Shown here: positions 1 to 23,249 of the stretch, piece by piece
How positions within the stretch are numbered: position 1 is the first letter of the stretch
Layout of the letters: the number at the start of each line of letters is the position of its first letter
From: an uncultured Bacillota bacterium
GTDB lineage: Bacteria; Bacillota; DTU025; MWDF01
DNA length: 64,000 bases
Assembly (NCBI GenBank): GCA_963823655.1
Contig: CAWGMK010000007.1
Span: 22,831 to 86,830 of the forward strand
Reading direction: 5' to 3'
The notes under the pieces: generated by a model
Database searches by the model: none
What the model was told of the DNA's origin: nothing
The model's input: only the letters and a program-made list of their open reading frames with translations
Made by a program: the position numbers and the translations under genes

Positions 1-10
1 TCTTGCCATA

Positions 11-265
11 ATGGGGAGCTATATTTCCTCAGCACAGGACAATACAATTGAATACCCCAATCCATTCAATAGTCCATTACTGGGGACAGTTATATATTTG
101 TCGTTCGCCGTCTTGTTCGGTGCAGCTGTCACTGGGTTAATTGCTGTTATCAAAGAAAAGGAGCGCTCTATTCTCGTTTACTTCATTATTCCGACCGGTA
201 TAGTAGTCACTTTGTTTGGTTTGATGCTTCTTATCGGAGGACTAATTGGACCGCCAAATCAGTGA
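11..265 (+). CDS. small hypothetical membrane protein (2 predicted TM helices); may be the C-terminal part of a gene starting before the window
   Basis: 84 aa ORF with two hydrophobic stretches (LLGTVIYLSFAVLFGAAVTGLIAVI, ILVYFIIPTGIVVTLFGLMLLIGGLI). No recognisable family. Confidence 0.3.
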   Translation: MGSYISSAQDNTIEYPNPFNSPLLGTVIYLSFAVLFGAAVTGLIAVIKEKERSILVYFIIPTGIVVTLFGLMLLIGGLIGPPNQ

Positions 266-502
266 ATGTATCTGTCTTATCAATGCGTTGGATCAAGTTA
301 TCGCTGGAATACTCAATGGAGTCTTGAACTTGTGTGTTCACTAAGGCTTATTGCAAGTTCAAGGCAAGCATTAAAAATTCTTAATGCTTGCCCACATCAG
401 TTGCCTCATGTCTTAAATCATTTTCACAGACCATGCTGCGTGTTCCTGCCTCTCCTGTCACTGCTGTTTTGTGCATCAAAACGCTCCAGTGTTATCCCTA
501 TG

Positions 503-2149
503 CTACTGCGGTATTTTGAAACTGTATCCGCATATAGTGCAGGTATAGGTGGTATATCCGCCTTCTGTGAAGCTAGGAGGAGTCACAACACTGATGAACG
601 TGCAGGCTTCGACTTCCCTATGGCTTGTGTTGTTTGAGCAGATCCGGCTGTGTGTACTCCTTTGATCTGATGATGCAGCGTCATGTGACCAGTCGCTCCA
701 AGCGTGCCCCAACGCTTCCGAGGTATCCATATAGCTGTATTTACACCTCGAGCAAGTATGTATGGTATATCCGCCTTCAGTGCAGGTCGGTGGGGTCACT
801 AAGCTGTTGAACGTGCAGCTTTCCGTTTCCTTGTGATTCGCGTTACGGTAGCAGATTCGACTGTGAGTGCTAGCAGAGCCAGCCGTAGCAGCATCATGCG
901 CCCAGTTTCTCCAAGCATGCCCCAATGCTGCAGTCGAAGCGTCTTTGTAACTGTATCCGCATCCTGTGCAGGTATGGGTGGTATATCCCTTTTCTGTACA
1001 GGTCGGCGGAGTCACAACGCTGCTGAATGTACAGACTCTCAATTCTCTGTGACTTGTGTTGCGCGAGCAGATTTGGCTGTGGGTGCTCCTTCTGCCAAAT
1101 GATGAGCCAACATGGACCCAGGCACTCCAGCTGTGCCCTAAAGCTGCAACCGGGGTATCTGCATATGTGTATCCGCATACTGTGCAGGTATGGGTGGTGT
1201 AGCCGCCTTTAATGCAAGCCGGCGGGGTCACAACGCTGTTGAAAGCGCAGCCTTCGGTTTCCGTATGGCTTTGATTATTGGCGCAGACCCTGCTGTGAGT
1301 GCTCGTTTCGCCTGATGCACTGTCATGTGTCCATGCGCTCCAGCTGTGCCCCAATGCTGCAACTTGGTTATCCGTATAATTGTATCCGCATATCGTGCAG
1401 GTATGAGTAGTATATCCGCTTTCGGTGCAAGTCGGCTGAATTACAGCGTTGTTGAAAGTGCAGCCAACCGTCTCCGTGTGATTTGTGTCACGGGAGCAGG
1501 TCCGGCTATGGGTGCTCGTCACGCCTGTCGTTGCAATGTCATGGGCCCAATTGCCCCAGATATGCCCCAATGCACTAACAATATTGTCATCATAATAGTA
1601 TCCACATCCTGCCGTGCAAGTGTGACGTGTATATCCTCCCTGCGTACAGGTTGGCGGAACGACAGCTGTCACTGCCATGGTATGGGCTTCAACATTATTT
1701 GTCAGACCGCAAACGCAGGCATGCCAGTGATTTGTGCCATTGTATGCCCAATTAGCATATTCATGTTCAATATTCAGCGTATAGCTAAAAGAATTGGCGT
1801 CAATGTATGGCCAATCCACCCCGCTTGATACAAGCCTGGCAAGAAATAGGCTATAGTAATGTCCACTTTCAGGGAGATTTCTAACGAGATAAGGAGGATC
1901 CGTGAATGTGTAACCAGGGTTTATTGTGGCATACCACTGACTCCATGTCATTGGGCTGCTATATTGCATTTTTACATGTGTGTTTGGGTCAATCCCATCC
2001 ACAGTAAAAAGGACCGATACGTTCTCACCGTGTTTAACGGGGCTAGGATCCTGCACGAATGTAACAGTATATGCCGCTGCAGCGGCAGGCATGAGCAGGA
2101 TACACGCCATAAGCAAGCCGACCACGAGAAGCGGTGATCTTTTTTGCAT
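503..2149 (-). CDS. secreted Cys/His-rich tandem-repeat protein (signal peptide + N-terminal domain + about six ~72 aa repeats)
   Basis: 548 aa ORF. N-terminal signal peptide MQKRSPLLVVGLLMACILLMPAAAAAY. About six tandem repeats with the pattern ALGHxWxxWxHDxAxxGxxSTHSRxCxxNxxHxExxxCxFNxVVTPPTCTExGYTTHTCTxCGYxY, roughly 6 Cys and 8 His per repeat. No family recognised. Confidence 0.6.
   Translation of the reverse strand: MQKRSPLLVVGLLMACILLMPAAAAAYTVTFVQDPSPVKHGENVSVLFTVDGIDPNTHVKMQYSSPMTWSQWYATINPGYTFTDPPYLVRNLPESGHYYSLFLARLVSSGVDWPYIDANSFSYTLNIEHEYANWAYNGTNHWHACVCGLTNNVEAHTMAVTAVVPPTCTQGGYTRHTCTAGCGYYYDDNIVSALGHIWGNWAHDIATTGVTSTHSRTCSRDTNHTETVGCTFNNAVIQPTCTESGYTTHTCTICGYNYTDNQVAALGHSWSAWTHDSASGETSTHSRVCANNQSHTETEGCAFNSVVTPPACIKGGYTTHTCTVCGYTYADTPVAALGHSWSAWVHVGSSFGRRSTHSQICSRNTSHRELRVCTFSSVVTPPTCTEKGYTTHTCTGCGYSYKDASTAALGHAWRNWAHDAATAGSASTHSRICYRNANHKETESCTFNSLVTPPTCTEGGYTIHTCSRCKYSYMDTSEALGHAWSDWSHDAASSDQRSTHSRICSNNTSHREVEACTFISVVTPPSFTEGGYTTYTCTICGYSFKIPQ
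506..1672 (-). repeat. in-frame tandem DNA repeats (period about 216 bp) encoding the Cys/His-rich repeat units
   Basis: Repeated nucleotide blocks are visible across 520-1670, for example recurring ...cagtcggtggggtcacaa.../...caggtcggcggagtcacaacgctg... segments, mirroring the protein repeats. Confidence 0.6.
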
Positions 2150-2750
2150 AACCTATCTCCACCTTTCTATAAAAGTCATTCATGCACAATAACAGCAATA
2201 CGTTAATACGAATCAATGATTGGTCAGCCTAGCTGAAACCAACCTGAAGAATAGTTCTTGTTTTCTTATTGATCCTTTTTCTCATATCCCTTATCAACAT
2301 CACGAGGTGAAGATATTATGCAAATATGATAGATTGTGAAGAGCTGCCGCAATTGCCTCAACTGAATGTCATCGCTAATTGCTGCTGTAATATTCGTCAT
2401 TAATATCTGAAATCATTCTGATAATTCTGAAAATGTTTTAATGCCGGAATTTTTCAATTTGAGTCTTTATCGAAATTTGATAGCAGCCAAGAATGTCTGA
2501 TCTGATGTTTTCATTACGCGATGTATAAAATAATTCTGTAAGAGTCTGGTAGTTTTTAACCCTATTGGCTTCGGCGGTGATATTCAATTTGTTTCTGTTC
2601 GTGAGATCCATTCTTGTATCTCTTGAGACCATACATTCCGGCTACTTAACAGTATTCAAATCCTAATGCTTGCACCCTTCTTGATAAATGCATTTTTATA
2701 TTCACGTTCGCTTGTCTAGGTAAAGGCGAATAAGAGGGCGCTTTTTGCTT

Positions 2751-2847
2751 TGCTTGACCGTTTGCTTGACCACTAGCCTACAATGCAAAACAAAACCGCC
2801 AGCATACTGGCGGTATCTAGCTCTATTGATGCCGAAGGCGGGATTCA
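2751..2847. repeat. about 95 bp intergenic repeat element, copy A: tandem GCTTGACC(N5)GCTTGACC + CACTAG + conserved hairpin ACCGCCAGCATACTGGCGGT + GGCGGGATTC
   Basis: About 90% identical to copy C at 5485-5580. The hairpin is followed by TTTGTTTTG on the minus strand (terminator-like). On the plus strand there is a TTGACC-N19-TACAAT promoter-like arrangement. Confidence 0.7.
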
Positions 2848-2968
2848 AATGACTTCAATCCTTTGTATCCATCTAGTATCCCTAATTCCATACAGTCCAG
2901 CTATTTGACCCCTATTTGAATCCTACTACGTCCATTTAGTTCATATAATCCACTGGGTATCACCACGT

Positions 2969-3013
2969 CTGCTTGACCGTTTGCTTGACCACTAGATCCA
3001 GCACTCCTGCTGG
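2969..3013. repeat. partial third copy of the repeat element (CTGCTTGACCGTTTGCTTGACCACTAG) followed by a different hairpin, CCAGCACTCCTGCTGG
   Basis: Exact 27 bp match to the 5' part of copies A and C; the sequence diverges after CACTAG. Confidence 0.65.
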
Positions 3014-3124
3014 CTTGCTTAGGAGGTGTTCGATCATTAATCTTGCAATATCTATGGAAGCTGCCGTTATAGCTTTCGTTTTGCTTGATCAAATGCGAAT
3101 TCTCCTAGGATCCCTATCTCATCA

Positions 3125-3934
3125 TTACCCCATAGTTGAAGCATAGGATTTTATACTCCATGCTTCACATATTTTGACTACATCCTGCTCGTTAGGCGCC
3201 CAGACCTCATCTGTTTTGCTGTACCCAATTTCCTTTTCAATGCGGCTTATACGACCCTTATCTCTCATCCTTTGGCCCGTTTCGCCCAAGTATGCAAAGG
3301 ACCTCTTTATATTTCCAGCGCTTGCTTTCATCCATTGGTGATATTCGACGATCCTATTTGTGCTATAGGCATGTGCTTCACTAAACTCTAGGCTTAGGGT
3401 CCTTATCAGGTCTTCTACATCATAATAGCAAAGGGCAAATGCTTGAAATGATGCTATGATAGTCCACTTGTTAACGCAAGGTAGTATTAAGGCGTAATCA
3501 ATTGCATGATTACCGAATACCTCCTCTAAGCCATATTGGCATTGGACGCTCTTCACATCCCCTTTCAAGAGGATGCGTGCTAGTTTATCGTTGTCAGCAT
3601 CCTTTACGGCCAACCAACTGGATTTATAGGGTAATCCGATATCCCTTAATTCAATCGATTTGCAATAAGAATCGGTAGTAGATATTGCTATAGAACGCTC
3701 TAGCGCTTCTACTACTTCAGTCGGATTGCTTATATCGCAAACAATCGGTTGAAGGTATAGATAGTAGTTGTTCTGCTTCTTCGTTGGCCAAAATGTTATT
3801 GAATTTCCTGATAGTTTAACATGCACATACTTCTTACCACGTTCCGCATTAGCCTCGCCTTTGACTTCATAGAAAATCTCAACAGGACTTTCAGTGTCCC
3901 AATATGCTGCCTTGACATACGGCAACCTATCCAT
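3125..3934 (-). CDS. hypothetical protein (269 aa), low-GC island
   Basis: Long ORF in AT-rich DNA with no recognisable motif. Overlaps the upstream 60 aa ORF by 8 nt, so the two are either an operon or one gene split by a frameshift. Confidence 0.5.
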   Translation of the reverse strand: MDRLPYVKAAYWDTESPVEIFYEVKGEANAERGKKYVHVKLSGNSITFWPTKKQNNYYLYLQPIVCDISNPTEVVEALERSIAISTTDSYCKSIELRDIGLPYKSSWLAVKDADNDKLARILLKGDVKSVQCQYGLEEVFGNHAIDYALILPCVNKWTIIASFQAFALCYYDVEDLIRTLSLEFSEAHAYSTNRIVEYHQWMKASAGNIKRSFAYLGETGQRMRDKGRISRIEKEIGYSKTDEVWAPNEQDVVKICEAWSIKSYASTMG

Positions 3935-4109
3935 ACTCGTGTCTGGCTACATCGAAGAAGGCACTGATGATTTCTTCGTCGGTGAAGTTCGGTTCTATTC
4001 GAATTATTGGCAGGGTTGGTAGTATCTCATTATCTTTCGTTTGCTTTAACGTTACGATGATGCTTTGACCATCTGCCGTGTTGTAGCAAATCTCAAATTT
4101 CCCTTCCAT
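3927..4109 (-). CDS. hypothetical small protein (60 aa), possibly the N-terminal fragment of the 269 aa protein
   Basis: 8 nt overlap with the start of the downstream ORF. No family recognised. Confidence 0.35.
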   Translation of the reverse strand: MEGKFEICYNTADGQSIIVTLKQTKDNEILPTLPIIRIEPNFTDEEIISAFFDVARHEYG

Positions 4110-4202
4110 TTCGATCTCCTATTTGGGCAATACTGATAAGCCCCAAGATATGGTACCAGTTCTCCGGGTGAAGGTCAAAGTTTTCGATTGCTTCAAGTCG
4201 GT

Positions 4203-4499
4203 CTATAGAACATCTACCGGTATGTATTGGATGCCAACGATGCCCTCCTTAATAAGTGCATCGACAACCGGTTTCTTAACAACCACCATTCTCCCATGAA
4301 GTCTCTCTTGGGTAAGGTTGAAATCCTTCGTAGCCACAATTCCTGTTTTCGAGAAACCTATAGTCTTATACGTCCAGTAATCGGTCGTTCCTATAATACC
4401 GCAGCTGCAATTTCTTCTTCTCTCTTCTGGCAATATATTGGCCAGGTTGGTACATAATGTTTGAAAGCTTCTTGACACTGCCCTTGTTTCGACATTCAT
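4203..4499 (-). CDS. hypothetical protein (98 aa), low-GC island
   Basis: ORF flanked by the 13 bp direct repeat TCGGTCTATAGAA (about 4199 and 4514). No family recognised. Confidence 0.35.
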   Translation of the reverse strand: MNVETRAVSRSFQTLCTNLANILPEERRRNCSCGIIGTTDYWTYKTIGFSKTGIVATKDFNLTQERLHGRMVVVKKPVVDALIKEGIVGIQYIPVDVL

Positions 4500-4970
4500 T
4501 TATAAAAAAGCGGTACTCGGTCTATAGAAAAGTCAAGAGGACAACTATAGCTATGTTTGCAATGGTTTTTATGATAAACATGATTTCTTCGACTCGTACT
4601 CTGCTAATCTCAAGTTCATCAGCTATCTTAGTAATATACGGTTTATGCTCAGTGTATTTCCATTTGGTCCATATTAAATCCTTAAATCTCTTGCCGTTAA
4701 ACCAATTGATATAGCTAAAATCAATACTTTGAAAATAAAAGCTGCGGGCCTGTCATCATTCCATTTCCATATGGCAAGAATATACCCTGTAGATAGGAGA
4801 TACTATTCCCGTCCATGCTGATATGGTTCTTTTCATTCCTGAGTTCTTCCTATTAAAGAACCATTTGTTTAGAACCAAATCATTGCGGCTTTCATTATCA
4901 TCATAAGTTATCCTCATCAACCTAAAAAACCCGAACTCGCTACTTAGGATTAGGAAGATACCCATGGAAT

Positions 4971-5306
4971 TTATTGTATCCTTGCAGCCCAAAATCCTAG
5001 TGACAAAAAACTTACAACTAATATGAAGGATGCGACAACATTAAACGACAAGTAATCAGAATATACAAATTCCTTTCCAGTTAGTTCGCCTATCTTTAAC
5101 CCGGCTTCGTAATTGTTACATGTAGCTGCTCTTTCATACCATTCAATACCTATCCCTATATGCATTAGTCGTTCTGTCATTACCTGGAAGTGGTAAGAGA
5201 TATAGTAATCGCCAAGCTCCTCCATGCTTTGAGGGTCGCCACTCTGAGCTTCTCGAATTAATTCTTGAAGCGCCTTTTGTTCATCCTCTTCAACGTTCTT
5301 GTGCAT
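4971..5306 (-). CDS. Sel1/TPR-like repeat protein with C-terminal transmembrane anchor
   Basis: GDPQSMEELGDYY...GIGIEWYERAA...YEAGLKIGEL resembles Sel1-like repeats. The C-terminal VVASFILVVSFLSLGFWAA stretch is hydrophobic. Confidence 0.4.
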   Translation of the reverse strand: MHKNVEEDEQKALQELIREAQSGDPQSMEELGDYYISYHFQVMTERLMHIGIGIEWYERAATCNNYEAGLKIGELTGKEFVYSDYLSFNVVASFILVVSFLSLGFWAARIQ

Positions 5307-5484
5307 TCCATGACCCCCAGATTCAATACAGGTTTTGGATAAGTACTCAATATACCTTCTTGAGCAATCTGCCGCTTCCTTCCAATACTAGTGTTTATTG
5401 TTTTATCCAATCGAGTTTTCTTCATCCATTGAGTCGAATTCTGCCGGCAAAATATACGGCAATTAGAGGGGGGTTTTTATACTC

Positions 5485-5580
5485 TGCTTGACCGTTTGCT
5501 TGACCACTAGCCTATATGCAAAACAATACCGCCAGCGTACTGGCGGTATGAAACCCCATTGATGTTAATGGCGGGATTCT
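5485..5580. repeat. about 95 bp intergenic repeat element, copy C (direct repeat of 2751-2847)
   Basis: CTGCTTGACCGTTTGCTTGACCACTAGCCTATATGCAAAACAATACCGCCAGCGTACTGGCGGTAT...GGCGGGATTC. The hairpin has a compensatory loop change (cata to cgta). It lies about 100 bp downstream of the minus-strand gene 5658-6443, consistent with that gene's terminator. Confidence 0.7.
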
Positions 5581-5657
5581 GCAACAAATCTCTCGCTGCA
5601 TATATAAGCTTTCTAATACCCAGTAAAAAGATACCAACCAAACGCATTCTTATAGGT

Positions 5658-6443
5658 TTATTTCGGCTGCATTACTCCGGCGAACACAAGCCATGCAAGG
5701 ACAGATTTTGCAACCAGACTCAAAACTATATAGGCGCGTTCACCATAGAGATAATCGGCCCATCTGCCTATCTTCTTGTATTGAAGGACCATATTGATTG
5801 GGAACAGGTTGAAGAAGACGAAGTATGATCCCACTATTGCGTAGGCAAACCACGGGACCTTTGACAAGTCCGAGTTGCCGAAAGCGTGAAGGAATACTAC
5901 TACCCAAGGGCCTATTCCTGCAATTGAGCCAAATACAAATGGACTCCAGTCGGTTTTCTTCTTAAATTGGTTGAGCTCTTCCATCAACAGGCCGAAGAGG
6001 TTCATCGAGGCGTTTACAAGGAATATGAGCAGGAGCGCGCCGACGTCATACACTCCGAAGAGCTGGGCGATGAGCAAAATCATAAGAGACGAGCTTAGAG
6101 CATACTCGAACCATCTAAATCTGTTTATGCCCTTCTCCAAACCCTTGTTGTATTCCTTATTGCCCCAAGGGGAGACAATTATGAAATGGGCGAGCGCCGA
6201 AAGAAGCAGGAAGCAGGCAACCAGCGCCGCGAAAGGAAGGTCCGCAATCTTCTTCGAATTGGTCACAAGCCTCATAAGCGTAGTATCGAAGGTTAGAAAA
6301 TTGGACCAGACCGGTAACTTGAAGCTGGAGAACTTATCCACCAGGAGCGCAAGCGACAACATCGCTGCTCCTTGAATGAAGTGCAGGAAACCCATGAAAA
6401 GGTTGAATTTCTTAAGGGAGGAAAGCTCGGTTTCTCTATACAT
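5658..6443 (-). CDS. heliorhodopsin-like 7TM protein (putative retinal-binding)
   Basis: 261 aa, about 7 hydrophobic helices. Contains FRWFEYALSSSLMILLIAQ, VNASMNLFG and GERAYIVLSLVAKSVLAW. The Lys in VAKS is at the position of the Schiff-base Lys in heliorhodopsins, and the sequence resembles heliorhodopsin 48C12 as I recall it. Confidence 0.6.
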   Translation of the reverse strand: MYRETELSSLKKFNLFMGFLHFIQGAAMLSLALLVDKFSSFKLPVWSNFLTFDTTLMRLVTNSKKIADLPFAALVACFLLLSALAHFIIVSPWGNKEYNKGLEKGINRFRWFEYALSSSLMILLIAQLFGVYDVGALLLIFLVNASMNLFGLLMEELNQFKKKTDWSPFVFGSIAGIGPWVVVFLHAFGNSDLSKVPWFAYAIVGSYFVFFNLFPINMVLQYKKIGRWADYLYGERAYIVLSLVAKSVLAWLVFAGVMQPK

Positions 6444-6508
6444 TTTTGCATACTCCTTTTTAGTTAATTCGTACGTGCCTTACAGCCATTTGCCTGATTG
6501 GAAAGACG

Positions 6509-7483
6509 CTACAAGGCTTCCGAAATCACCCGAAGCGCGTTCTTATAAGCTACCTTCTCGATCACTTCGCTGCTTAGCCCGTCTTTCTGAAGCTTATCGA
6601 AGAGAAGTCCCATCTTTGAGCTGTCCGATACTTCTATGTTGCCATCTATCCCGTCGAAATCGGATCCTAGAGCCGCAATATCAGTTCCTCCCACATCAAT
6701 CATGTGCCTAACATGGGCTGACATCATTTCCAAAGTGCTCTCTTTACCGGCAGCATCCGGGCTGAGGAATATCGGCGCGAAATTGAGCCCTGCAACACCG
6801 CCGTGGTCGGCAAGGACCTTTATCATGTTATCGGTCAAATTCCTTCGATGCGGGCTGAGGGCCCTGCAATTGGAGTGCGATGCTATGAAAGGCTTCTTCG
6901 AAATTTCTGCTACATCGCTGAAACCGCCGTCAGAAAGGTGTGAGACATCCACAAGCATCCCTATGGAGTTCATGTACTCTATTGCGGCTTTCCCGAAGGG
7001 CTTCAACCCTTTTTGCATGATTTCGGCGTCTTTCGAGTTGGGATATCCGAAGCAGTTCTCATAGTTCCACGTAAGAGAAATCAACCTCACTCCGGCTTCA
7101 TAGTAACGTTCAATATTCTCAAGCTTGCCCTCTACGCTCCTGCCATCTTCAATTGTCAGAAATGCGGACATCTTACCTTTGCTCTCATTTTCCAGCATCT
7201 CGGAAGCATTGCCGGCGAAGCTAATGATATCGGCATATTTCTCCAGATTCATCTTGAACGTCGTGCTAAGCTGCCCGATATATTCTTCATCGGATACAAA
7301 TTCAACGTTAGGAGCGTGTTTAGCAATCTCCGGCGAGAGCATGTACATCGCGAAAAACTGGGCAAGCTGCCCTCCTTGCTTCATCCGCGCGAAATCGACC
7401 ATGCCGTCCATCTCGTACATATCCTGCTTCTTGAACAGGAATGTCCTCATTAATGTATCGCAGTGCAGGTCTATGAATTTCAT
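6509..7483 (-). CDS. membrane dipeptidase, peptidase family M19
   Basis: Motifs IDLHCDTL, LTWN, VDVSHLSD and ASHSNCRAL are typical of renal-dipeptidase-family enzymes. Confidence 0.85.
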   Translation of the reverse strand: MKFIDLHCDTLMRTFLFKKQDMYEMDGMVDFARMKQGGQLAQFFAMYMLSPEIAKHAPNVEFVSDEEYIGQLSTTFKMNLEKYADIISFAGNASEMLENESKGKMSAFLTIEDGRSVEGKLENIERYYEAGVRLISLTWNYENCFGYPNSKDAEIMQKGLKPFGKAAIEYMNSIGMLVDVSHLSDGGFSDVAEISKKPFIASHSNCRALSPHRRNLTDNMIKVLADHGGVAGLNFAPIFLSPDAAGKESTLEMMSAHVRHMIDVGGTDIAALGSDFDGIDGNIEVSDSSKMGLLFDKLQKDGLSSEVIEKVAYKNALRVISEAL

Positions 7484-7518
7484 GGCTTGCTCCTTGTCAT
7501 AGATAGCTAATAGTCCTC

Positions 7519-8331
7519 TTATTTATCCCGTCCGGGCCCCATCTTCACGCCACAGATGCTCTCTACTTTGGCAATGGCCTGTCTCGCGCCGTTAACCATA
7601 TGCCCGATCTCGCTTGTAAGGGCGACTAGCTGGAAACCTTGGCCAATCCTCTCAGCTACGATCTCGGGGGATCCCAGGTACATGCCTACCGGAATGTTAT
7701 GGCTCTTGCCTGCAGCAAGCACCTTTTGAACAGCTTCTTCGAACCTGGGGTTCTTGAACTGCCCTGGAATGCCCATCGATGAAGTGAGGTCATAAGGGCC
7801 GATAAATGCTGCTCCGACGCCTTCAACTTGGAGGATCTCTTCGATGTTGTCTATTGATGCCTGCGTTTCGATCTGGACGATGACGAGGATGTTGTCGTTT
7901 GCCTCCCTCATGTACTTGCCTTCGTCCATATCATACCTAGTAGTGCGGCCCCCTCCTACTCCTCTTAGCCCCTTAGGAGGGAACATACAACCTCTTACGG
8001 CCATCTCTGCTTCAGCTTTCGAATTGACCCATGGCACCACGATGCCCATGGCACCCCGATCCAGGGCCAATTTCATAAGCACCGGATCGTTCCACGCAAC
8101 ACGTACGAATGGCACGACATCGGTACGCTCTATTGTCCTTATCATGTTTTCAGCGCCCTCGAAGTTATGGGCGGAATGCTCCATATCGATCACGAGCCAG
8201 TCGAAACCGACGTAACTCATGGCTTCGGCCGAGGAGCACGAGGAGATGCTCAGCCATGTGCCCAAAGTTGGCTTGCCCTGCATCAGTAACGCTTTGACTC
8301 TATTAGCCCTAAACTGACTATTATCTGCCAT
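7519..8331 (-). CDS. HpcH/HpaI family aldolase (2-keto-3-deoxy-acid aldolase / citrate-lyase-beta-like)
   Basis: FDWLVIDMEHS, PFVRV, DRGAMGIVVPWVNSKAEAE and PPKGLRG motifs of the HpcH/HpaI aldolase fold. Confidence 0.8.
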   Translation of the reverse strand: MADNSQFRANRVKALLMQGKPTLGTWLSISSCSSAEAMSYVGFDWLVIDMEHSAHNFEGAENMIRTIERTDVVPFVRVAWNDPVLMKLALDRGAMGIVVPWVNSKAEAEMAVRGCMFPPKGLRGVGGGRTTRYDMDEGKYMREANDNILVIVQIETQASIDNIEEILQVEGVGAAFIGPYDLTSSMGIPGQFKNPRFEEAVQKVLAAGKSHNIPVGMYLGSPEIVAERIGQGFQLVALTSEIGHMVNGARQAIAKVESICGVKMGPGRDK

Positions 8332-8450
8332 TTTATCCTCCTAGAAAATCTGATAAGGTAGCGTTCCCCATACACTTGGGCTACACCTTCTGGTCTGCCT
8401 TGCATATTGTCTGCTCAAACGCTTATCCGCCTTTACTTTTCCGGTTTAGA

Positions 8451-9634
8451 TCATTCAATGCCCGCAAACCAGAAAGGTGCCGATGAATACAGCTTCATCA
8501 TGGTCTTCAAGGCAGACTCATCAATTGTGAAGCAGGGATTATGTATGTCTTTCGAATACTCCGCTGCCTTATTCGCAGCCCCTATTAGAACGAATGTGCC
8601 GGGCACTTTCTTGAGAAAATATGTGTAATCCTCGCCAACCATCAAAGGCTTCGCCCTCAGGACATTCTCCGCTCCGAGCACCCTTGCCGCCAGCTTGCCC
8701 ATCTCCTCCGTTATCTTGACGTCATTGACTAGCGGCGGGTAATGGCATATGTACTCTACCTCGGCGCTTGCCCCCATCGAGGAGGCGATGCCCGTCACCA
8801 TGTCAATAATCGATTTTCTAACCATATCCCGAACCTTCGTATCGAAAGTCCTGACCGTGCCGGTAATATTGGCAACATCGGCGATAACGTTGAACCTGTA
8901 TCCTGCATTGATCGTTCCTACTGCGACCACGCAAGGGACTCCCGGCTCGGCCTTCCTTGAAACAATCGTCTGCAGCGCATTCACAATGTTGGCAGCAATC
9001 GGGATAGTATCAATGGCGTTGTGGGGCGCTGCCGCATGTCCTCCCACGCCCGTAATCTTTATCCTGAACTCGTCAGGGGCCGCAAACAGAGCCCCTTCTC
9101 TAAGCGCCACCTGCCCCGGGAGGTAATCACCCAAGACATGCCCCCAATGATGATATCGACGCCTTCCATCGCGCCCTGCTCTATCATAGGTATGGCGCCG
9201 CCGGGTCCCTCTTCTGCCGGCTGAAAGATGAATTTCACGGTTCCCGGCAGCTCGGACCTGAACGAGGAAAGAAGCTTTGCCGTCGAAAGAAGGCCCGCAG
9301 TATGCGCATCATGCCCGCAGCCGTGCATCCACCCTTCATGCTCTGATTTGAAGGGAAGGCCCGTCCTTTCGGTTATTGGAAGGCCGTCCATGTCGGCGCG
9401 TATGGCTATCGTACGCCCCGGCAAGCCTCCTTTTAATACCCCAATGACACCGGTGCCGGCTACTTGCGTTCGGACTTCGTCTAGCCCCAAGCCTTTGAGC
9501 TTCTGGGCTACGTATGCCGACGTCTTGAACTCCTTTAGCCCTGCCTCAGGCCACTTGTGCAGCGCCCGCCGAGTTTCGACGGCATCCTGGAAGATCTCCT
9601 CGCTTTTTGCAGATATCCTCTCATATACAGACAT
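8451..9634 (-). CDS. M20D family amidohydrolase (N-acyl-amino acid amidohydrolase / hippurate hydrolase-like), apparent frameshift
   Basis: The N-terminal ORF 9059-9634 has the HGCGHDAH metal-binding motif. The C-terminal ORF 8451-9134 continues the M20D dimerisation/C-terminal domain. The two overlap by 76 nt in different frames. Confidence 0.75.
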
Positions 9635-16538: not shown

Positions 16539-17533
16539 TCTTCCTGAACCCCCTCAGGCCTGATTTCCATTAACATACCCATGTCCAACGCGAAGCCTAT
16601 TCCGCCCTCATCCGAGCCCAGGGACCTCATAAGCCCGTCGTACTGGCCGCCGCCTAGCATCGGCCTTCCGTAGCCATTTACGTAGGCTTCGAAGACTGGG
16701 CCGTTGTAGTAATCCAAGGGCCTCAGAAGGCCGAGCTCGAAGGCGATGCCAACCCCTTTTGATACCATCCTCGCGCCATCGAGAAGAAGTGATGCCCTGA
16801 GTGCCTCTTCGGCAAGCTTCGTTGCCGGATACTCGCGTACGATGCCCTCCAAGCCCTTGATCGCGGCCTCATCGCAATTCGAGGGAATCAGCTTACGCAG
16901 CATGGATGAAGCCTTGTTCCCTTTGCCGTATTTGGTAAGGGCGGACATTGCTGAACTTATGTCATGGACCATCAGGGCCTGCCTTAGCTCGTCCATCTGC
17001 AGGCCGTCCAGTCCGCTTTCAAGAAGCAGTTGGTCTAAAAGGGATATGTCGCCTATTCTAAGTTGCACTGCTTCCTTGGCGAAGCGGCAGATGCCAATCG
17101 CGGCGCCCAAAGCCTCAAGCCCCGCCTTGAGCCCGTCGTGTCCGTAGATCTCGGCGCCGAGCTGAAGATCCTGCCTCGATATGGCAAGTCCGTCCCTATT
17201 GCCGGGCCTTCTGAATACTGGCCCTGTGTAGAAGAGCCTTAATGGCCTCGGTTTTGAAGCAAGCTCCCTTATGGCAAGCTTCGCGCACGGCCTGGTCATA
17301 TCGGAGCTGAGCCTGCCGATGAAGCCTCCGGGCAATGCGAACTTGATAGGCCCGCCAGGCATGCCCGCCTCATCGTTATTGTCAGCAAGCTCGATTATCG
17401 GAAGCCTTACTTCGTCGAAACCCAGGCTCTCCAGCATTGAAGCAAGCGCCGCCTCGGTCCTTCTTAAAGCGCCTGCCTCCGGGGGGAGAAGCAAGGACAA
17501 ACCATCCATTACATCCTGCAAGTACAACACCAC
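16535..17533 (-). CDS. hisZ: ATP phosphoribosyltransferase regulatory subunit (HisS paralogue)
   Basis: Class-II aaRS-like catalytic core (LRLFYTGPVFR, YYNGPVFE) without an anticodon-binding domain. Sits immediately upstream of the short hisG. Apparent GTG start. Confidence 0.8.
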   Translation of the reverse strand: MVLYLQDVMDGLSLLLPPEAGALRRTEAALASMLESLGFDEVRLPIIELADNNDEAGMPGGPIKFALPGGFIGRLSSDMTRPCAKLAIRELASKPRPLRLFYTGPVFRRPGNRDGLAISRQDLQLGAEIYGHDGLKAGLEALGAAIGICRFAKEAVQLRIGDISLLDQLLLESGLDGLQMDELRQALMVHDISSAMSALTKYGKGNKASSMLRKLIPSNCDEAAIKGLEGIVREYPATKLAEEALRASLLLDGARMVSKGVGIAFELGLLRPLDYYNGPVFEAYVNGYGRPMLGGGQYDGLMRSLGSDEGGIGFALDMGMLMEIRPEGVQEE

Positions 17534-17577
17534 TCTTTATCGCTTTAGTTAGGTAAAGTATTAAAGTGCACGAATAA

Positions 17578-17607
17578 GAAGATACTATCAACTCAGAAAA
17601 GAGTCAA
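17578..17607 (-). promoter_or_regulatory. candidate sigma-70-like promoter of the his operon (TTGACT-N17-TATCTT on the minus strand)
   Basis: Hexamers read directly from the sequence about 45-75 nt upstream of the hisZ start. Weak -10. Confidence 0.25.
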
Positions 17608-17640
17608 GGAAATGCCTGTATTTATATCGGTGCAGAAAAG

Positions 17641-17675
17641 AAAAGGCCGCCATGCAGGCGGCTTTCAATTTTGTT
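17641..17675. terminator. bidirectional Rho-independent terminator-like hairpin upstream of the his promoter
   Basis: AAAAGGCCGCCATGCAGGCGGCTTTCAATTTTGTT: GC stem flanked by an A-run 5' and a T-run 3', so it can work in both orientations. Confidence 0.45.
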
Positions 17676-18562
17676 GGGTTTATGAGAGGCTTGAGCCTTT
17701 AACCTCCAGGTTGCCAGATGCCCTTCCGGCTTGACCATCCTCGAAAATATCTGGCTCTTGGATAGAAGCCCCGGTTATTTGTGGTAGCAAAAAGTGACTA
17801 TGTTCCTCGGCAGTACATCATTACATTTATTGTATTTTAAAAATCGTTGATTTTCTACAATAAAACCATTAATATTGGTTTAGGTGGTGAAAATATGATA
17901 AAAACTAACGCTATGCTAAGGCACGAATTAAAATCGTATGTGAACCCGATGGAAAACATACGACGACTGGCCAAAGAAGGAGAAATGGTTTTCTGTTGTC
18001 AGAGGGTTATATGAAACGGACAGGAGTATTCCTGGTTACTATCTTGCCCCAATCATTTCGGATCCTTCATATCTATCCTTTGAGTTTGCATTAGCATACT
18101 ACTCCTATTTGAAGCTGCATATAACTTTACATTGGCTACTTTTGAAAGAAAAAGGCAAAGCAATAATACACCATACGGCAGCTTCACTATCGTGATGTAC
18201 CGAGTGAAGCATGCTGATAACTTCGTACAGGACCGGGTACGGTTTTAAAATTGCGTCTGCCGAGAAGGCAATATGCGATGCGCTCTCCAAAATGCCCCAC
18301 TAATGAATAGAAGTGAATTGGAGCGCATGTATTTGAGGATCTGAGAATTGATGAAAGCGATTTCTTCCATCTAAACATGACAGATCTTCTTAATACATCC
18401 GCCTTTTTAAGTCGCAGGAACACAAGTTGCTACAGGTATCTATCAAAAGGAGAATGAAGACGAAGTAAATCATCCGCTTTATGCATAGAGCTACTGGTCA
18501 GTTGCGCGAACAGGCAAATGCGGCAGGCTTATCCAAATGATTAAGCCGGGAAGTGAAATGTT

Positions 18563-18898
18563 ATGATGCTCGTCGAACTGCTTATTCTGTCACCTATAGG
18601 CGCAGCACTCATCTTGTGTGGCTTGCTAATCTGGAAGAAGAACAGGATAGATTTGATACATTCATATCACTATAAAAGAGTCACAGAGGAGAACAAAAAG
18701 GCGTATTCAACGGCAATGGGCAAAGGCGTCCTGCTCATGGGTATCGGAGTGTTACTGACCGGTATTGATCAATTACGTAACGGGAGCTGCTTCCGGCTGG
18801 ATTTGTTTCGTGTTTTTCTTCATCTTAGGGCTCACGTTGGTGCTAAGAGCCCAGAGCAAATTCAATGGCGGGCTTTTCTAACATTCCCGATACGTTGA
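18563..18898 (+). CDS. small membrane protein (2 TM), function unknown
   Basis: 111 aa with two hydrophobic helices (LVELLILSPIGAALILCGLLIW, GVLLMGIGVLLTGI). Confidence 0.35.
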   Translation: MMLVELLILSPIGAALILCGLLIWKKNRIDLIHSYHYKRVTEENKKAYSTAMGKGVLLMGIGVLLTGIDQLRNGSCFRLDLFRVFLHLRAHVGAKSPEQIQWRAFLTFPIR

Positions 18899-18944
18899 CT
18901 GAATTGACTGCATCTTCCTTTTAGAAATATCGAGTATATGTATG

Positions 18945-19274
18945 TTAGATCTCCCCTTTTTCCTTCAGCCTTGCTATGGCCAGCTTATATCCCCCCGCAC
19001 CAAATGCGAGGAACCTTTTGACCCTGCTTACGGTGGCGGAACTTGCCCCCGTATCCTTACCTACTTCAGCGTACGTCCTGCCCTTTTCCAGGCTCAGAGC
19101 GATCTCGAACCGGTCGCTAAGTTCGCTTACCTCCGAGATGGTGCAGAGGTCCTCGAAAAAGGCGTAACATTCATCGACGTTTTCAAGCGTCATTATTGCC
19201 TTGAAGAGCCTATCTGTCTTCGCGCGGTCCACATTGTCCTTAAGCGCCATGTAACAGGCCTCCTTTTGGCACAC
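18945..19274 (-). CDS. YerC/YecD family TrpR-like DNA-binding protein
   Basis: ELSDRFEIALSLEKGRTYAEVGKDTGASSATVSRVKRFLAFGAGGYKL matches the conserved YerC/YecD (Trp-repressor-like) core. Confidence 0.7.
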   Translation of the reverse strand: MCQKEACYMALKDNVDRAKTDRLFKAIMTLENVDECYAFFEDLCTISEVSELSDRFEIALSLEKGRTYAEVGKDTGASSATVSRVKRFLAFGAGGYKLAIARLKEKGEI

Positions 19275-19627
19275 ATATGCTTCATCTTGTTAAAGTATAT
19301 TTAAATCTCCGGGCATTACAAATCCATTAGATATTGCTGTCTGTTGTGGATCCGGAACTATTTGCCAAACTTGCTGAGATACGGCTTAATAGACTCATTT
19401 CGTAAATATCATTTTCCTGCATGAATAGCCTTCAGCTTTTCGAACGCCCTCCTGTAACCGTCAATTTGATCGGACCATTCAGCAAGCTTCAGGCAGGGGA
19501 ACTGGTCGCATTCGCTGCAGTTGCCTAAGCCTTCGTCATCCATACATCTGAATAGCGATCTGAATAGGTTTTCTTGCAATCCTACTTCTGAAATCTCGGG
19601 ACTTTTGGCTTCACATCATGTTTTAAA

Positions 19628-20698
19628 CTACTGACTCTTGATCTCTTGGTCTGTGTTCTTTATATAGGAAGTGCTTTTTCCTGCTCCAACCTTAATAATG
19701 TATCCTTCCTTGAGGAGCGAAGCCAATGCCAACTCGATTGTTGATATGCTGATGTCTGGAAATTTCTCTGATATCGACTTCTTTGGATAGTTTTTGCAAC
19801 GTGGTATCAAACAATGCACGAATTCGATCTGGCTTGGACAGACTACGATTCAGCATTAATTCGACACGCATCGAAAATTCCTTGTATGCACCCAGTATGA
19901 TTTCCAAGTAATACTTCACGAAAGGGAAGTAAGTGTTCGTGAGACTGTGCCAGCCTTGAGAACTGGCTTGCAGCACATCGTAATAGGTTTCCTTAGTTTT
20001 CTCAATCAGCATTTCAAGGCTGATATATTTTCCAACGATGTATCCTGACCGATATAAAAGCAGTAAGGTTAACAGCCGACTCATCCGCCCGTTTCCGTCA
20101 GTAAACGGGTGAATGCAGAGAAAATCCAGAATGAACATCGGAATCAACAATAACGGGTCATACTTTTCAGACTGAATTGCATTGATGAAGGCCATTGTCA
20201 GACAATCAACCGCTTCCGGTGTTTCAAAGGCCGGCAACGGTGCAAATCGGATCTTGCTGACACCTTGTGATCTGTTTCGGCAATAGCATTGTCTGCATTT
20301 TTGAATCGTCCGCCCATGGAGGAAGGGTTAAATTGATATAGATCCCGATGCAACTGAAGAATCGTATTCGTTCGCGGGACAATGTAATCGTAGCTGTCGT
20401 GGATCAGCGCCAGGACTTCTCGATATCCAGCAATTTCCTGTTCTGAGCGATTTCGCGGCTCGGACTTTTCGCTGACCAAAGCCTGCAATCGTTCATCTGA
20501 TGTGTAAATGCCCTCAATACGATTGGAAGCACCAGTGCTCTGAATTTTAGCAACCTCAAGCATGGCATTTAGCACATCAGGCTTGGCTTCGATATACAGC
20601 TCTTGCTTGCCTTTGTGCTCATGAATAGCAGAAACCAAATTCATAAGTTCGTAATGGAGCAGTTCATCTGGTATTTTACTGTATTCAAACTCCCTCAT
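19628..20698 (-). pseudogene. Fic/DOC family protein (adenylyltransferase-type) interrupted by two frameshifts
   Basis: Three consecutive ORFs cover one Fic architecture: 20198-20698 is the N-terminal region, 19692-20237 is the Fic core with HPFTDGNGRMSRLL, and 19628-19819 is a C-terminal winged-helix-like tail (ELALASLLKEGYIIKVGAGKSTSYI). Frame breaks fall near 20230-20290 and 19790-19820. Confidence 0.55.
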
Positions 20699-21396
20699 CT
20701 ATTACATCCTTTCTGCACAAGGATTAGTTTACTGCATTATTGTACCATTAAATTATGCAGAAAGGAATATGATTAGGCAGAACGATTTGAATGATATAGC
20801 TGCTATAAAGTATATCTGCATAATTCAACAGTTAAATAGTGCAGTAAAACATATGCGTTAGCAGAACTACCGCACAGCATGCTCCCCTCAATGGCTTTCT
20901 TTATACCCTCATCCTCTTTTAGCCAGCCTTCTTTCCGGAACCAGTCAATAACCACCTTAGCTCCAGCCAGGTCTTATCCGCAAGGCGTATCTCACATGAG
21001 CCGCAATCCAGTCCGCAGGCAGCCATCATGATTGGCTTATCCATGTCCTCCACCGATGCGCACTTGATTTCAGGCTATTCATGTTTCATCTTTGGGATGC
21101 TGATTCCATCTCAGTATCAAGGTTTATGAACGAATTCAGCAACAAGGCCTCCATCATAGGATCTATGCTTGAAACGAACAACAAACGAATTATCTATATC
21201 AAACCGAAGATCTCGCCCAAAAGGCTGGAGGAATTGATCGTAAGCAACTGGAATCTACTTTCAGACAGGGATTTTATGCGAAAGCTATCTTGCGTGTTAA
21301 CCAAGAAGCCTTCTAATCGTGCGAATTTCATAATTACATACACCATATCAGTAATTAACATAAATGGTATATAATCTTTGACGATTGAGGCATTTA

Positions 21397-21723
21397 GATG
21401 TATATTGAATTTGTTAGCAAGCGCTTGAAAGAGCAGATTGAAGATGCCAAAGCGATGAACAAGAGGTACGGCGAGGACCGAGCCCGCGAAATATGGAAGA
21501 GGCTTGATCAAATCAGGGCCTTTAACAACATCGGGGATCGCTTAAATCGGGTATTGGCCATGTGGAAATGTTGAGAGGGAATCTTAAGGGGATTATGTCG
21601 ATTAGAGTTGACAAGAAGTTGCGGATTCTGTTTGAGCCTGTTAGTGAAAGCGGGCACGCCAATGACGATGTATTCGCATTAAACAGAATAAGGATCTTGG
21701 AGGTGGGCGGGTATCATGAATAG
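21397..21723 (+). pseudogene. HigB/RelE-family toxin-like gene with a 1 nt frameshift (about 21545-21560)
   Basis: Frame A gives MYIEFVSKRLKEQIEDAKAMNKRYGEDRAREIWKRLDQIRAFNNIGD..., frame C gives ...SGIGHVEMLRGNLKGIMSIRVDKKLRILFEPVSESGHANDDVFALNRIRILEVGGYHE*. The C-terminus matches the HigB signature (G..SIRV...RI.F......V...DYH). The stop overlaps the ATG of the downstream HTH gene (cATGAATAG). Confidence 0.5.
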
Positions 21724-22747
21724 AGACTCTGAATACAGAGCTCCGGTGGCAATACCGCCCGGCGAGACTCTATTCGAAGTGCTTGAGGATAGGAATATGA
21801 CTCAGGTGGAACTCGCCAAGAGGCTGGGTTACAGCACTAAGCACATAAATCAGGTTATTAAAGGCAAGGCGTCAATTAGCAGCGATTTTGCCGTAAGCCT
21901 GTTTTATGTGCTGGGGATACCTGCATATTTCTGGCTAAATCTGGAGACCCAGTACCAGGAGGCCGCCGCCCGTTTGGCTGACGAAGCACGAATGAAGGAA
22001 GAAGCCCTTCTAGTCAAAGAGTTCTGCTATGCCGAAGCAAGCAGAAGAGGGTGGGTAAAGTCCACAAGAGATAGCTGCGAGAAGGTCATCGAACTTAGGA
22101 AATACCTGCAGGTGTCCTCTCTGTCCCATGTAGAAGACATATATCCGGCCTCTTTCCGGATTGGAAAGTGCAAAAAGACCTTAATCGGAGCACTGGCTAT
22201 GTGGCTGCGGCAAGGTGAGCTTATCGGAAAAGCTAAAAGCACAAACAAGTACAACGAAAAGAGCTTGAGAAATTTTATAGGCATGCTTAAGCAAATCTGC
22301 GCGGAGGCAGATGCGGCGGGGTTGGAGAAAGCAGGTTCCATATTAGCTGATTGCGGAGTGGCCCTTGCTGTTGTCCCACAGCTGGAAGGTACAAATGTAT
22401 TGGGTGCTGCAATGAAATTGGCACCTGATAAATATGTCATTGAAATGTCCTTAAGGGGGAAATGGGCCGATATCTTCTGGTTCAGCCTTTTCCACGAAAT
22501 CGGGCACATTCTTCTTAGCCATGTGAAAGAAACATGGAGCATTAACTTCGATGATGCCGCAGAGTGCTACCACAAGAATCAAGCTGAAGAGGATGCCGCA
22601 AACGAATTTGCCAAGGACCAGCTGATCATTCCGGCTATTTACGAAGGGTTTAAAAGTAACCACGATTTCTCCAGGGAGTCAATTAAGGAGTTCGCCGCAG
22701 ACGAATGGAATTCACCCGGGAATTGTCCTTGGAAGACTATACTATGA
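21716..22747 (+). CDS. HTH-XRE DNA-binding domain fused to an ImmA/IrrE-family (COG2856) zinc metallopeptidase; HigA-like antitoxin partner
   Basis: N-terminus LFEVLEDRNMTQVELAKRLGYSTKHINQVIKGKASIS (XRE HTH). C-terminal FHEIGHILLSH, the HEXXH zinc-peptidase motif of ImmA/IrrE. Confidence 0.75.
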   Translation: MNRDSEYRAPVAIPPGETLFEVLEDRNMTQVELAKRLGYSTKHINQVIKGKASISSDFAVSLFYVLGIPAYFWLNLETQYQEAAARLADEARMKEEALLVKEFCYAEASRRGWVKSTRDSCEKVIELRKYLQVSSLSHVEDIYPASFRIGKCKKTLIGALAMWLRQGELIGKAKSTNKYNEKSLRNFIGMLKQICAEADAAGLEKAGSILADCGVALAVVPQLEGTNVLGAAMKLAPDKYVIEMSLRGKWADIFWFSLFHEIGHILLSHVKETWSINFDDAAECYHKNQAEEDAANEFAKDQLIIPAIYEGFKSNHDFSRESIKEFAADEWNSPGNCPWKTIL

Positions 22748-22795
22748 TGGACTTCTCAACCATGGCGTTTTCCAAGAGATGAGATATCAGGTTAA

Positions 22796-23249
22796 TTGAT
22801 AATTTCCGTGAGTATTCAATTCGGACAAAAGGACGGCTTCATAGTGATAAATCTAAGGGAGATCAATGCAGACAACTGGCGCGTACTGACCAAGCTGAAA
22901 GTCAAAGACTGGCAGGCCCCATTTGTCGCCAGCAACGGGGACTCTATCGCCAGGGCGCATTATGTTAAAGATAACTTCCCTCTCGGCATCTATGACGATG
23001 AGACTCCAGTGGGATTTTGCATGTATTCGATAAGCCCTAAGAGGCGAAATCTGGATACTTAGGCTGATGATAGCCGCAGATTATCAATCTAAAGGCCGCG
23101 GTAAGGAGGCCACAATCAAGCTTATAGAAATGCTCCTTGATAAGTTCGGCAAAGTGCCAATATTCATCAGCTTCGACCCTGCAAACGAATGGGCCAGGAA
23201 GATTATATGCCAGTTTGGGTTTCGTGAAGGACGACAGGGAAGCGGATGA
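22796..23249 (+). pseudogene. GNAT family N-acetyltransferase with an internal frameshift (about 23040-23065)
   Basis: The 88 aa ORF plus a +1 shifted continuation (...GEIWILRLMIAADYQSKGRGKEA...) restores the GNAT acetyl-CoA-binding motif (Q/R-x-x-G-x-G/A). Confidence 0.55.

Follow-up and report, generated by a model that had tools for sequence, protein, structure and literature searches.

What placed a block of AT-rich DNA, made up of uncharacterised genes and bracketed by direct repeats, next to a heliorhodopsin (HeR) gene in an uncultured member of the Bacillota? The block (hereafter the island) occupies positions 2150-5650 of the 64,000-nt stretch of contig CAWGMK010000007.1 that we analysed and refer to as the window. 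The explanation that we favor, and consider probable if well short of certain, is that the island consists of two decayed integrative elements in tandem, both devoid of an integrase, comparable to cis-mobilizable elements (CIMEs) and located at a variable locus downstream of the HeR gene, and that its repeats are parts of attachment (att) sites of the tyrosine-integrase type. At the centre of a full site would be a core that comes from the terminal ~23 nt of a tRNA-Leu gene, from T-loop and T-stem to acceptor strand and ACCA. A terminator would follow it, and on both sides (the P and P' arms) there would be a box in which two repeats stand in tandem with a period of 12 bp. Read along the minus strand, the order would be the HeR gene; a core and P' arm; the cargo; a P arm, core and P' arm; 34 nt; and a degenerate P arm and core. 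The cargo would run from a gene for a Sel1-like protein, through an open reading frame (ORF) broken by stop codons, a 98-aa ORF and a promoter-like motif, to a gene for a 346-aa protein with a predicted CdiI-fold C-terminal domain, which two frameshifts would have inactivated. Two elements would have integrated in tandem, and the second would since have been reduced to nearly nothing. Seen in this way the island is horizontally acquired, decayed and of immunity type, and a fairly ordinary genomic islet.

Repeat unit and tRNA-Leu core

At 40.1%, against 52.3% across the window, the GC content of positions 2150-5650 is the lowest of any 3.5-kb stretch in the window, in agreement with the by-eye estimate of under 45% in the original prediction, which had been made from the letters of this DNA and its ORFs. 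The island ORFs all lie on the minus strand and have a GC content at third codon positions (GC3) of 0.37-0.49, whereas the range is 0.60-0.76 in housekeeping genes such as his and pur. Low GC, the absence of the cargo from the closest relative found (see below) and the att-like flanking repeats together uphold the earlier claim that the island is compositionally foreign and horizontally acquired. Plasmid and phage searches with the island DNA gave no match.

Direct repeats of ~95 bp and ~90% identity had been noted at the outset. The repeats, ~95-115 bp long, are real (2733-2847 and 5467-5580), their identity is lower (83% over 120 nt, 2729-2846 versus 5461-5579), and rather than being confined to this one pair they belong to a ~230-bp unit that has a degenerate tandem copy in the island and further copies in other genomes. 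The unit is laid out as a box, a spacer of ~120 nt, a core, an intrinsic terminator and a box, with the box standing 117 nt upstream of the core and again 50 nt downstream of it. On the minus strand the 26-nt box reads CTAGTGGTCAAGCAAACGGTCAAGCA and is made up of two tandem repeats with a 12-bp period (GGTCAAGCAAAC/GGTCAAGCAGAC); it is present exactly at 2751-2776, 2970-2995 and 5485-5510 and nowhere else in the 64 kb, where the chance expectation is 0 copies.

The window contains one complete unit, at 2751..2995 on the minus strand, comprising a box (2995-2970), spacer A (2969-2850), the tRNA-Leu-3'-end-like core TTTGAATCCCGCCTTCGGCATCA (2849-2827), a terminator hairpin (2814-2795, with a T-run to 2783) and a second box (2776-2751). 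Comparison of repeats, boxes and cores suggests that this is a P-core-P' site, either attP-like or an internal attI-like junction. The left junction (5467..5580, minus strand), which would be attL-like, corresponds to the 3' third of the unit plus the box: it holds a core remnant beginning GAATCCCGCC (5579-5557), a terminator hairpin (5549-5526, T-run to 5516), a box with its two 12-bp-period repeats (5510-5485) and the first ~18 nt of a conserved left-end sequence that we call the leader. Its homology to the complete unit starts exactly at GAATCCCGCC, which occurs in the window solely at the starts of the two repeats; the left edge of the long repeat is, in other words, exactly the start of the core, and 78 nt of minus strand separate the HeR stop codon from this first core (core0). 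As judged from the sequence, the core and P' arm at 5580-5467 and the P arm and core at 2995-2827 would form an attL/attR-like pair in direct orientation around the cargo. The degenerate second unit (2500..2776, minus strand), detected by profile search (nhmmer E 1e-8 for 2672-2546), is ~62% identical to the unit and consists of a box, a 34-nt insert, a decayed half box, a spacer, a core (~2588-2565) and the remnant of a terminator.

A scan of genomes, metagenomes and viruses with a 21-mer of the box uncovered true relatives in an Oscillospiraceae metagenome-assembled genome (MAG; L001), in a Clostridia MAG (L002 and L005) and in a metagenome contig (L010); eight further matches, in unrelated high-GC or repetitive DNA, were put down to chance. 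Six full or partial copies of the unit (one each in the window, L001, L005 and L010, and two in L013, introduced below) align at 79-91% identity, with box 1 nearly invariant, and the full units of L001, L005 and L010 have a layout identical to that of window 2995-2751. The contigs of L001 and L005 terminate inside the unit, which fits a multi-copy sequence that breaks assemblies. The leader (5349..5484, minus strand) follows the box in L010 too and partly in L002, at 83-88% identity to L010 403-540 and L002 178-280. It contains a short frame, LDKTINTSIGRKRQIAQEGI, in which window and L010 differ by two changes, both synonymous and too few to separate a small ORF from conservation at the DNA level. 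Viral scans with the spacer and leader gave no match, nor did the unit when it was translated in every frame and searched against proteins.

The core is where the resemblance to an attachment site is closest. Its invariant centre in L010, L005 and L001, TTTGAATCCCGCCTTCGGCACCA, is laid out like the 3' end of a tRNA, with T-loop, T-stem strand, acceptor strand, discriminator A and CCA, and the 20-mer GAATCCCGCCTTCGGCACCA in these three cores is the exact 3' end (20/20) of the tRNA-Leu(GAG) identified by ARAGORN in L021. Furthermore, when annotated phage records were searched by blastn, the core matched the 'attP core sequence' of phage P4 at 21/23 bases; blastn also returned a Salmonella tRNA-Leu. 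In the P4 record the core is flanked on either side by a tandem pair of 12-bp 'attP arm sequence repeats', with an integrase gene beyond. Given the tRNA-Leu identity of the core and the P4-like plan of the arms, we read the unit as the P-core-P' site of a tRNA-Leu-type tyrosine integrase, and we infer that insertion took place by site-specific recombination. By analogy with P4, the box may be the arm-type binding site of the integrase (putative GGTCAAGCAAACGGTCAAGCA). The tRNA-Leu tail of the unit core was also seen as a tRNA-less fragment, TTCGAATCCCGCCTTCGGCACCA, at 9587-9609 (minus strand) of L022 (IMGVR_UViG_3300002700_000016), a viral contig that ends ~60 nt further on; the fragment probably marks where an unrelated prophage has its att site.

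The closest relative found, L013 (ENA ERZ25039527 contig_54358), encodes an HeR that is 98% identical in amino acid sequence and is syntenic with the window over ~8 kb of his, M20, HpcH, M19 and HeR genes at 89-92% DNA identity. This homology ends at the HeR stop codon. Past HeR, L013 has Na/Ca-exchanger, MscS and TIG-domain genes plus two copies of the unit, and none of the island cargo ORFs has a homolog in it. Since L013 is without the cargo but with two units, the cargo is not conserved at the locus and the unit is a feature of the neighbourhood. Many housekeeping genes at 1593-6162 of L013 are called in pieces (His_biosynth 232/148/114 aa, M20 177/226 aa, HpcH 121/155 aa); its assembly probably carries many indel errors, and the integrity of genes there is not to be trusted. 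Across the relatives we found no recognisable empty site, in which the genes on either side of the island would be joined, and HeR relatives at 73-78% identity share no synteny.

The broken 346-aa gene and the rest of the cargo

The largest cargo gene is a pseudogene. What had been described as a small overlapping pair, a 269-aa and a 60-aa ORF, turned out to be a frameshift artefact of a single gene for a 346-aa protein (3067..4109, minus strand). The 269-aa ORF has just two relatives among 5.8 billion proteins, and one of these, P0001 (346 aa), spans both ORFs. There are five different intact alleles of the 346-aa protein (P0001, P0274, P0277, P0278 and the copy in L002), relative to which the window has two 1-nt insertions; alignment with L007 and L002 places them at 3938 and ~3152. 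As the housekeeping genes of the window are unfragmented, we read the frameshifts as decay rather than sequencing noise, with the caveat that the ~3152 insertion sits in an A-run. For annotation this means that the deposited 60-aa and 269-aa hypothetical proteins should be one pseudogene.

AlphaFold2 reached a predicted local distance difference test score (pLDDT) of 35 with a 4-sequence alignment; adding 81 remote homologs produced a usable model, with pLDDT >90 in the C-terminal domain. In this model the C-terminal ~190 aa have the immunity-protein fold of CdiI (EC869-type). The fold is like that of CdiI of the EC869 o11/Yersinia type (PDB 4g6u_B, 4zqu_B, 4zqv, 4zqw_B; NMB0488, 2gkp) at ~12-17% identity; unlike CdiI, the 346-aa protein has an extra ~155-aa N-terminal region and is not matched by the Pfam CdiI model, and the window copy is a pseudogene. 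A profile of the C-terminal half recovered 1,438 clusters (50% identity) at E <=1e-3 among 1.84 billion representatives. No Pfam or NCBIfam model passes threshold for the family of this domain, and none matches P0001; among 84 relatives, 29 weakly match DUF6928 and 1 matches Pfam CdiI (PF07262). We are thus dealing with a large family, of at least 1,438 clusters at 50% identity, that is without a curated model in either database. In some of the relatives P0123-P0272 the domain (P0001 residues ~155-346) is fused to tetratricopeptide (TPR) repeats or to a CdiI domain.

What might such a protein do? Its fold suggests that the 346-aa protein may act as an immunity protein. In L002 the gene adjoins one of the SUFU family (E 8e-41), and in the surveys of polymorphic toxin systems by Zhang and Aravind the SUFU family is said also to act as immunity proteins. 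The CdiI fold together with the SUFU neighbour points to cargo of the orphan-immunity type. No toxin domain was found in the upstream neighbours of the 346-aa gene, which are the 98-aa ORF in the window, a 236-aa membrane protein in L007 and L018, and SUFU in L002. To our knowledge no contact-dependent growth inhibition (CDI) system is expected in Gram-positive lineages; the present model would extend the spread of the CdiI-type immunity fold into them.

A recurrent motif of ~45 nt lies at the 5' edge of the 346-aa gene cassette (4137..4181, minus strand). It is promoter-like (TTGACC, 17 nt, TACCAT, with an upstream TG), has the sequence TTGACCTTCACCCTGAAAACTGGTACCA... and comes in two subtypes, ...AATCTGGGGGCTG or ...CCTTTGATGGTAGTCAG. 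Ten further copies are located at gene or cassette boundaries, in L007 (884-924, 2096-2137), L018 (139-181, 925-966, 2143-2184), L002 (1746-1706, 3778-3738), L005 (3720-3762), L001 (272-230) and, inverted, L010 (1416-1458). Around the 346-aa gene, the homology among the window, L007, L018 and L002 starts at the motif and stops in or just after the box, and the breakpoints of window homology with L007, L002, L010 and L018 coincide with motif, box or core. The neighbours of the shared cassette vary, with the 98-aa ORF, the 236-aa membrane protein or SUFU upstream and the unit, the motif or IS3 downstream. RNAalifold detected no conserved RNA structure in the eleven motif copies, and the idea that the motif is a coding remnant (peptide LTFTLKTGT) was rejected, the frame being stop-closed on both sides in most copies. 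We suggest, with low confidence, that the motif is a cassette promoter or a further protein-binding site. The IS3-family orfA (MGKQNYTPEQII.KLR.IEIL...) was observed near contig ends in L001 (4727-5005) and L002 (65-1, minus strand), in the latter with the partial leader immediately before it. These genomes may carry it as an independent insertion sequence (IS) present in several copies.

None of the island ORFs has a significant Pfam, PHROGs or PADLOC match. The 111-aa ORF (4971..5306, minus strand) combines a single Sel1-like repeat with a hydrophobic helix at its C-terminus; it looks intact and is without a homolog in the other compared loci. The Sel1-like assignment given to it earlier finds weak support (Pfam E 0.21; PDB Sel1 repeat protein 6ork_A, E 8.8e-7). 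Adjoining it is a stop-interrupted frame (4522..4992, minus strand), likely a pseudogene of no significant family, in which a 78-aa ORF is followed by TGA TGA and 76 codons that include 'IADELEISRVRVEEIM'. The 'HTH-like fragment' reported before does lie in this frame, behind the 78-aa ORF across the TGA TGA, and has no significant match to any family. We also noted in this ORF a very weak rve_2-like stretch (E 0.13), and inside it a candidate RNA-OUT (RF00240; 4679-4747, minus strand), whose 23.5 bits (E 0.78) fall short of the gathering score of 41 and which was treated as chance. The 98-aa ORF (4203..4499, minus strand) belongs to no family and has no homolog in the compared loci. A 64-aa ORF, probably spurious, falls within the degenerate copy of the unit; the repeats are probably best labelled as att-type sites and this ORF not annotated as a gene.

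On the far side of the degenerate unit, a stretch of ~36% GC (2150..2499) extends to the start of a gene for a Cys-rich repeat protein and has a 44-aa ORF without a match as its sole ORF. The Cys-rich protein (503-2149, minus strand) is secreted, 548 aa long and composed of ~seven repeats, in each of which a C..GGYT.H.C..CGY motif is accompanied by an H..H pair, and it gives sub-threshold matches to C2H2 zinc-finger repeats (PF18868, E 1.3e-4). It is without a homolog in L013 or the other compared loci, and its gene may itself be part of the variable region. A second low-GC stretch (~44% GC) is found at 17500-22800, where Fic/DOC is split into 166-aa and 181-aa ORFs and a Trp-repressor-like protein, a DUF3784 membrane protein and an HTH_3 plus Peptidase_M78 (ImmA/IrrE-like) protein are also encoded. 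This stretch contains no copy of the unit, box or motif and is probably another decayed mobile-element remnant.

Weighing the explanations

Several observations count against reading the island as att-flanked elements. The cores in the window are mutated (GGCATCA; core0 ATTAACATCA), with 1-7 substitutions relative to the tRNA-Leu tail, and the long repeats have diverged to the 83% identity given above; we take both to mean that the integration events are old. ARAGORN detected neither tRNAs nor tmRNAs when applied to the window and seven related loci; none of the unit copies sits at a tRNA gene, so the tRNA-Leu gene that one would expect is not the insertion site here. No integrase adjoins the unit copies in the visible DNA of L001, L005, L010 and L013, and no recombinase family is represented in the island ORFs or in ten other mid-size ORFs of the window. 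An empty attB was not recovered; L013 diverges right after the HeR stop and shows no recognisable core. The arm geometry is the mirror image of that of P4, with upstream and downstream distances of 117 and 50 nt here and of 53 and 112 nt in P4, and the arm role of the box is argued by analogy. The motif at gene boundaries, one copy of which is inverted in L010, is not covered by the att model. As for the immunity function, itself deduced from similarity of fold, there is no toxin gene nearby and the Pfam CdiI model misses the 346-aa protein.

Could the unit instead be a dispersed intergenic repeat, of the repetitive extragenic palindrome (REP), miniature inverted-repeat transposable element (MITE) or BOX type? 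Such a repeat would mark the boundaries of genes, spread or exchange cassettes through homologous recombination and supply a terminator and a neighbouring promoter, with no site-specific integrase involved and the likeness of the core to a tRNA an accident. This would account for copies at several unrelated loci and at contig ends, for the intrinsic terminator that directly follows the upstream gene in each copy, for the recurrence of the promoter-like motif ahead of cassette genes, for the divergence of copies within one genome (83%, and ~62% for the tandem copy) and for the fact that no integrase was seen. We nevertheless think it unlikely, as a 20/20 tRNA-Leu 3' end with tandem 12-bp-period flanks specifically marks an integrase attP, as annotated in P4, the left edge of the repeat in the window falls at the core start, and the unit has neither terminal inverted repeats nor excess hairpin stability. 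That the repeats are terminator or regulatory modules was allowed for in the original prediction, and each does have an intrinsic terminator, but this leaves the tRNA-Leu core and the arm repeats unexplained. One version of the idea, which we regard as quite improbable, is that the unit encodes a small RNA of ~190 nt with a regulatory role, whose end is set by the terminator, or else acts in cis as a regulatory leader, and that the box is a transcription-factor site resembling the CtsR operator. The minus-strand terminator is clear, the sequence is conserved across six copies, and the box does recall the CtsR heptad repeat GGTCAAA NAN GGTCAAA. On the other hand, (i) there is no Rfam match at 1-9000 with E up to 5 beyond chance-level hits elsewhere; (ii) the fold energy is no better than that of shuffles (z -0.6 and -1.4 for the minus and plus strand, respectively); (iii) 0/49 predicted pairs covary in the six copies (RNAalifold) and the covariation term is positive, and the supposedly compensatory change of the hairpin comes down to one base in the loop (TATG versus TACG) and affects no pair; (iv) the minus strand has no sigma-70-like promoter ahead of the unit and (v) a CsrA-like GGA count of 8, versus 5.3 +/- 1.6 in shuffles, is not significant. 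A CtsR operator (A/GGTCAAA NAN A/GGTCAAA, with a 3-nt spacer) was rejected as an identity for the box, GGTCAAG CAAAC GGTCAAG, in which the spacer is 5 nt and the period 12 bp, not 10 bp; the CtsR pattern failed to match it at up to 2 mismatches.

The original prediction itself preferred an active toxin/immunity or anti-phage defence cassette, a proposal that we find very doubtful indeed. The immunity side of it has held up, in that the largest gene has an immunity-type fold and a homolog of that gene in a related array stands beside SUFU (L002), and there is in addition a Sel1-like membrane protein. Toxin and PADLOC defence genes are missing, and the small ORFs have no Pfam or PHROGs family. 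Moreover, the largest gene is twice frameshifted, the overlapping pair being an artefact thereof, and another ORF is broken by two stop codons. With at least two genes broken and no toxin, defence or recombinase gene, the island is a poor candidate for a functioning novel accessory system. We therefore retain the tandem pair of decayed, integrase-less elements as the best explanation of the island.

Comparison with known systems

The attP of P4, and P4-like elements at tRNA-Leu genes, share with the island the tRNA-Leu 3' end as core (21/23), repeats with a 12-bp period on both sides at ~50-120 nt, and foreign low-GC cargo. The island differs from them in having no integrase gene after the P' arm and no tRNA gene at the insertion site. 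Its arm repeat, GGTCAAGCA, is unrelated to the GGGGGCA of P4, the arm distances are mirrored, the host is of Clostridia type rather than an enterobacterium, and the element is decayed and ~2.7 kb long.

A second comparison is with the orphan-immunity arrays of Bacteroidales termed recombinase-associated acquired interbacterial defense 1 (rAID-1), which have an adjacent XerD-like recombinase (criteria from Ross et al., 10.1101/471110), and with integrons. Like these arrays, the island has co-directional, low-GC, small genes of immunity type with repeats at cassette boundaries, its gene content varies among close relatives, and one cassette is shared by L002, L007, L018 and the window. Unlike them, it has no adjoining XerD-like or IntI integrase, its repeats are attP-like with a tRNA core and not attC-like hairpins, and the host belongs to the Clostridia; since the defining recombinase is missing, we do not class the island as rAID- or integron-like. 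A more speculative idea, on balance unlikely, is that the integrase-less cassettes constitute exchangeable orphan-immunity arrays in Clostridia/Oscillospiraceae, each with a complete attP-like site and a promoter-like motif, that are shuffled in trans by a tRNA-Leu-type integrase encoded elsewhere. If this were true, they would be a Firmicutes counterpart of rAID-1 arrays or integrons that uses lambda/P4-type att sites instead of attC, and a new route for collecting orphan immunity genes. In any case, the ~230-bp unit, which breaks assemblies at several contig ends, is usable as a marker of variable loci in a poorly known group of Clostridia.

There is precedent for elements of the kind that we favor. 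CIMEs, which derive from an integrative and conjugative element (ICE) or integrative and mobilizable element (IME) and can be mobilised in cis after accretion, retain attL and attR, have lost the genes for integration and transfer, and undergo tandem accretion (PMC5704250); they and their accretion were first described for islands of Streptococcus thermophilus related to ICESt1 and ICESt3. No integrase, relaxase or other transfer-gene family was found among the ORFs between the sites of the island, and its elements match the CIME definition in kept att-type sites, lost integration and transfer genes and tandem accretion, a likeness drawn from sequence. They are much smaller than the CIMEs described so far, the second amounting to 34 nt between sites. 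What the island and CIMEs would have in common is attL/attR-type flanks around DNA free of integration and transfer genes, a tandem arrangement with an internal hybrid att site (P-core-P') and a decayed cargo.

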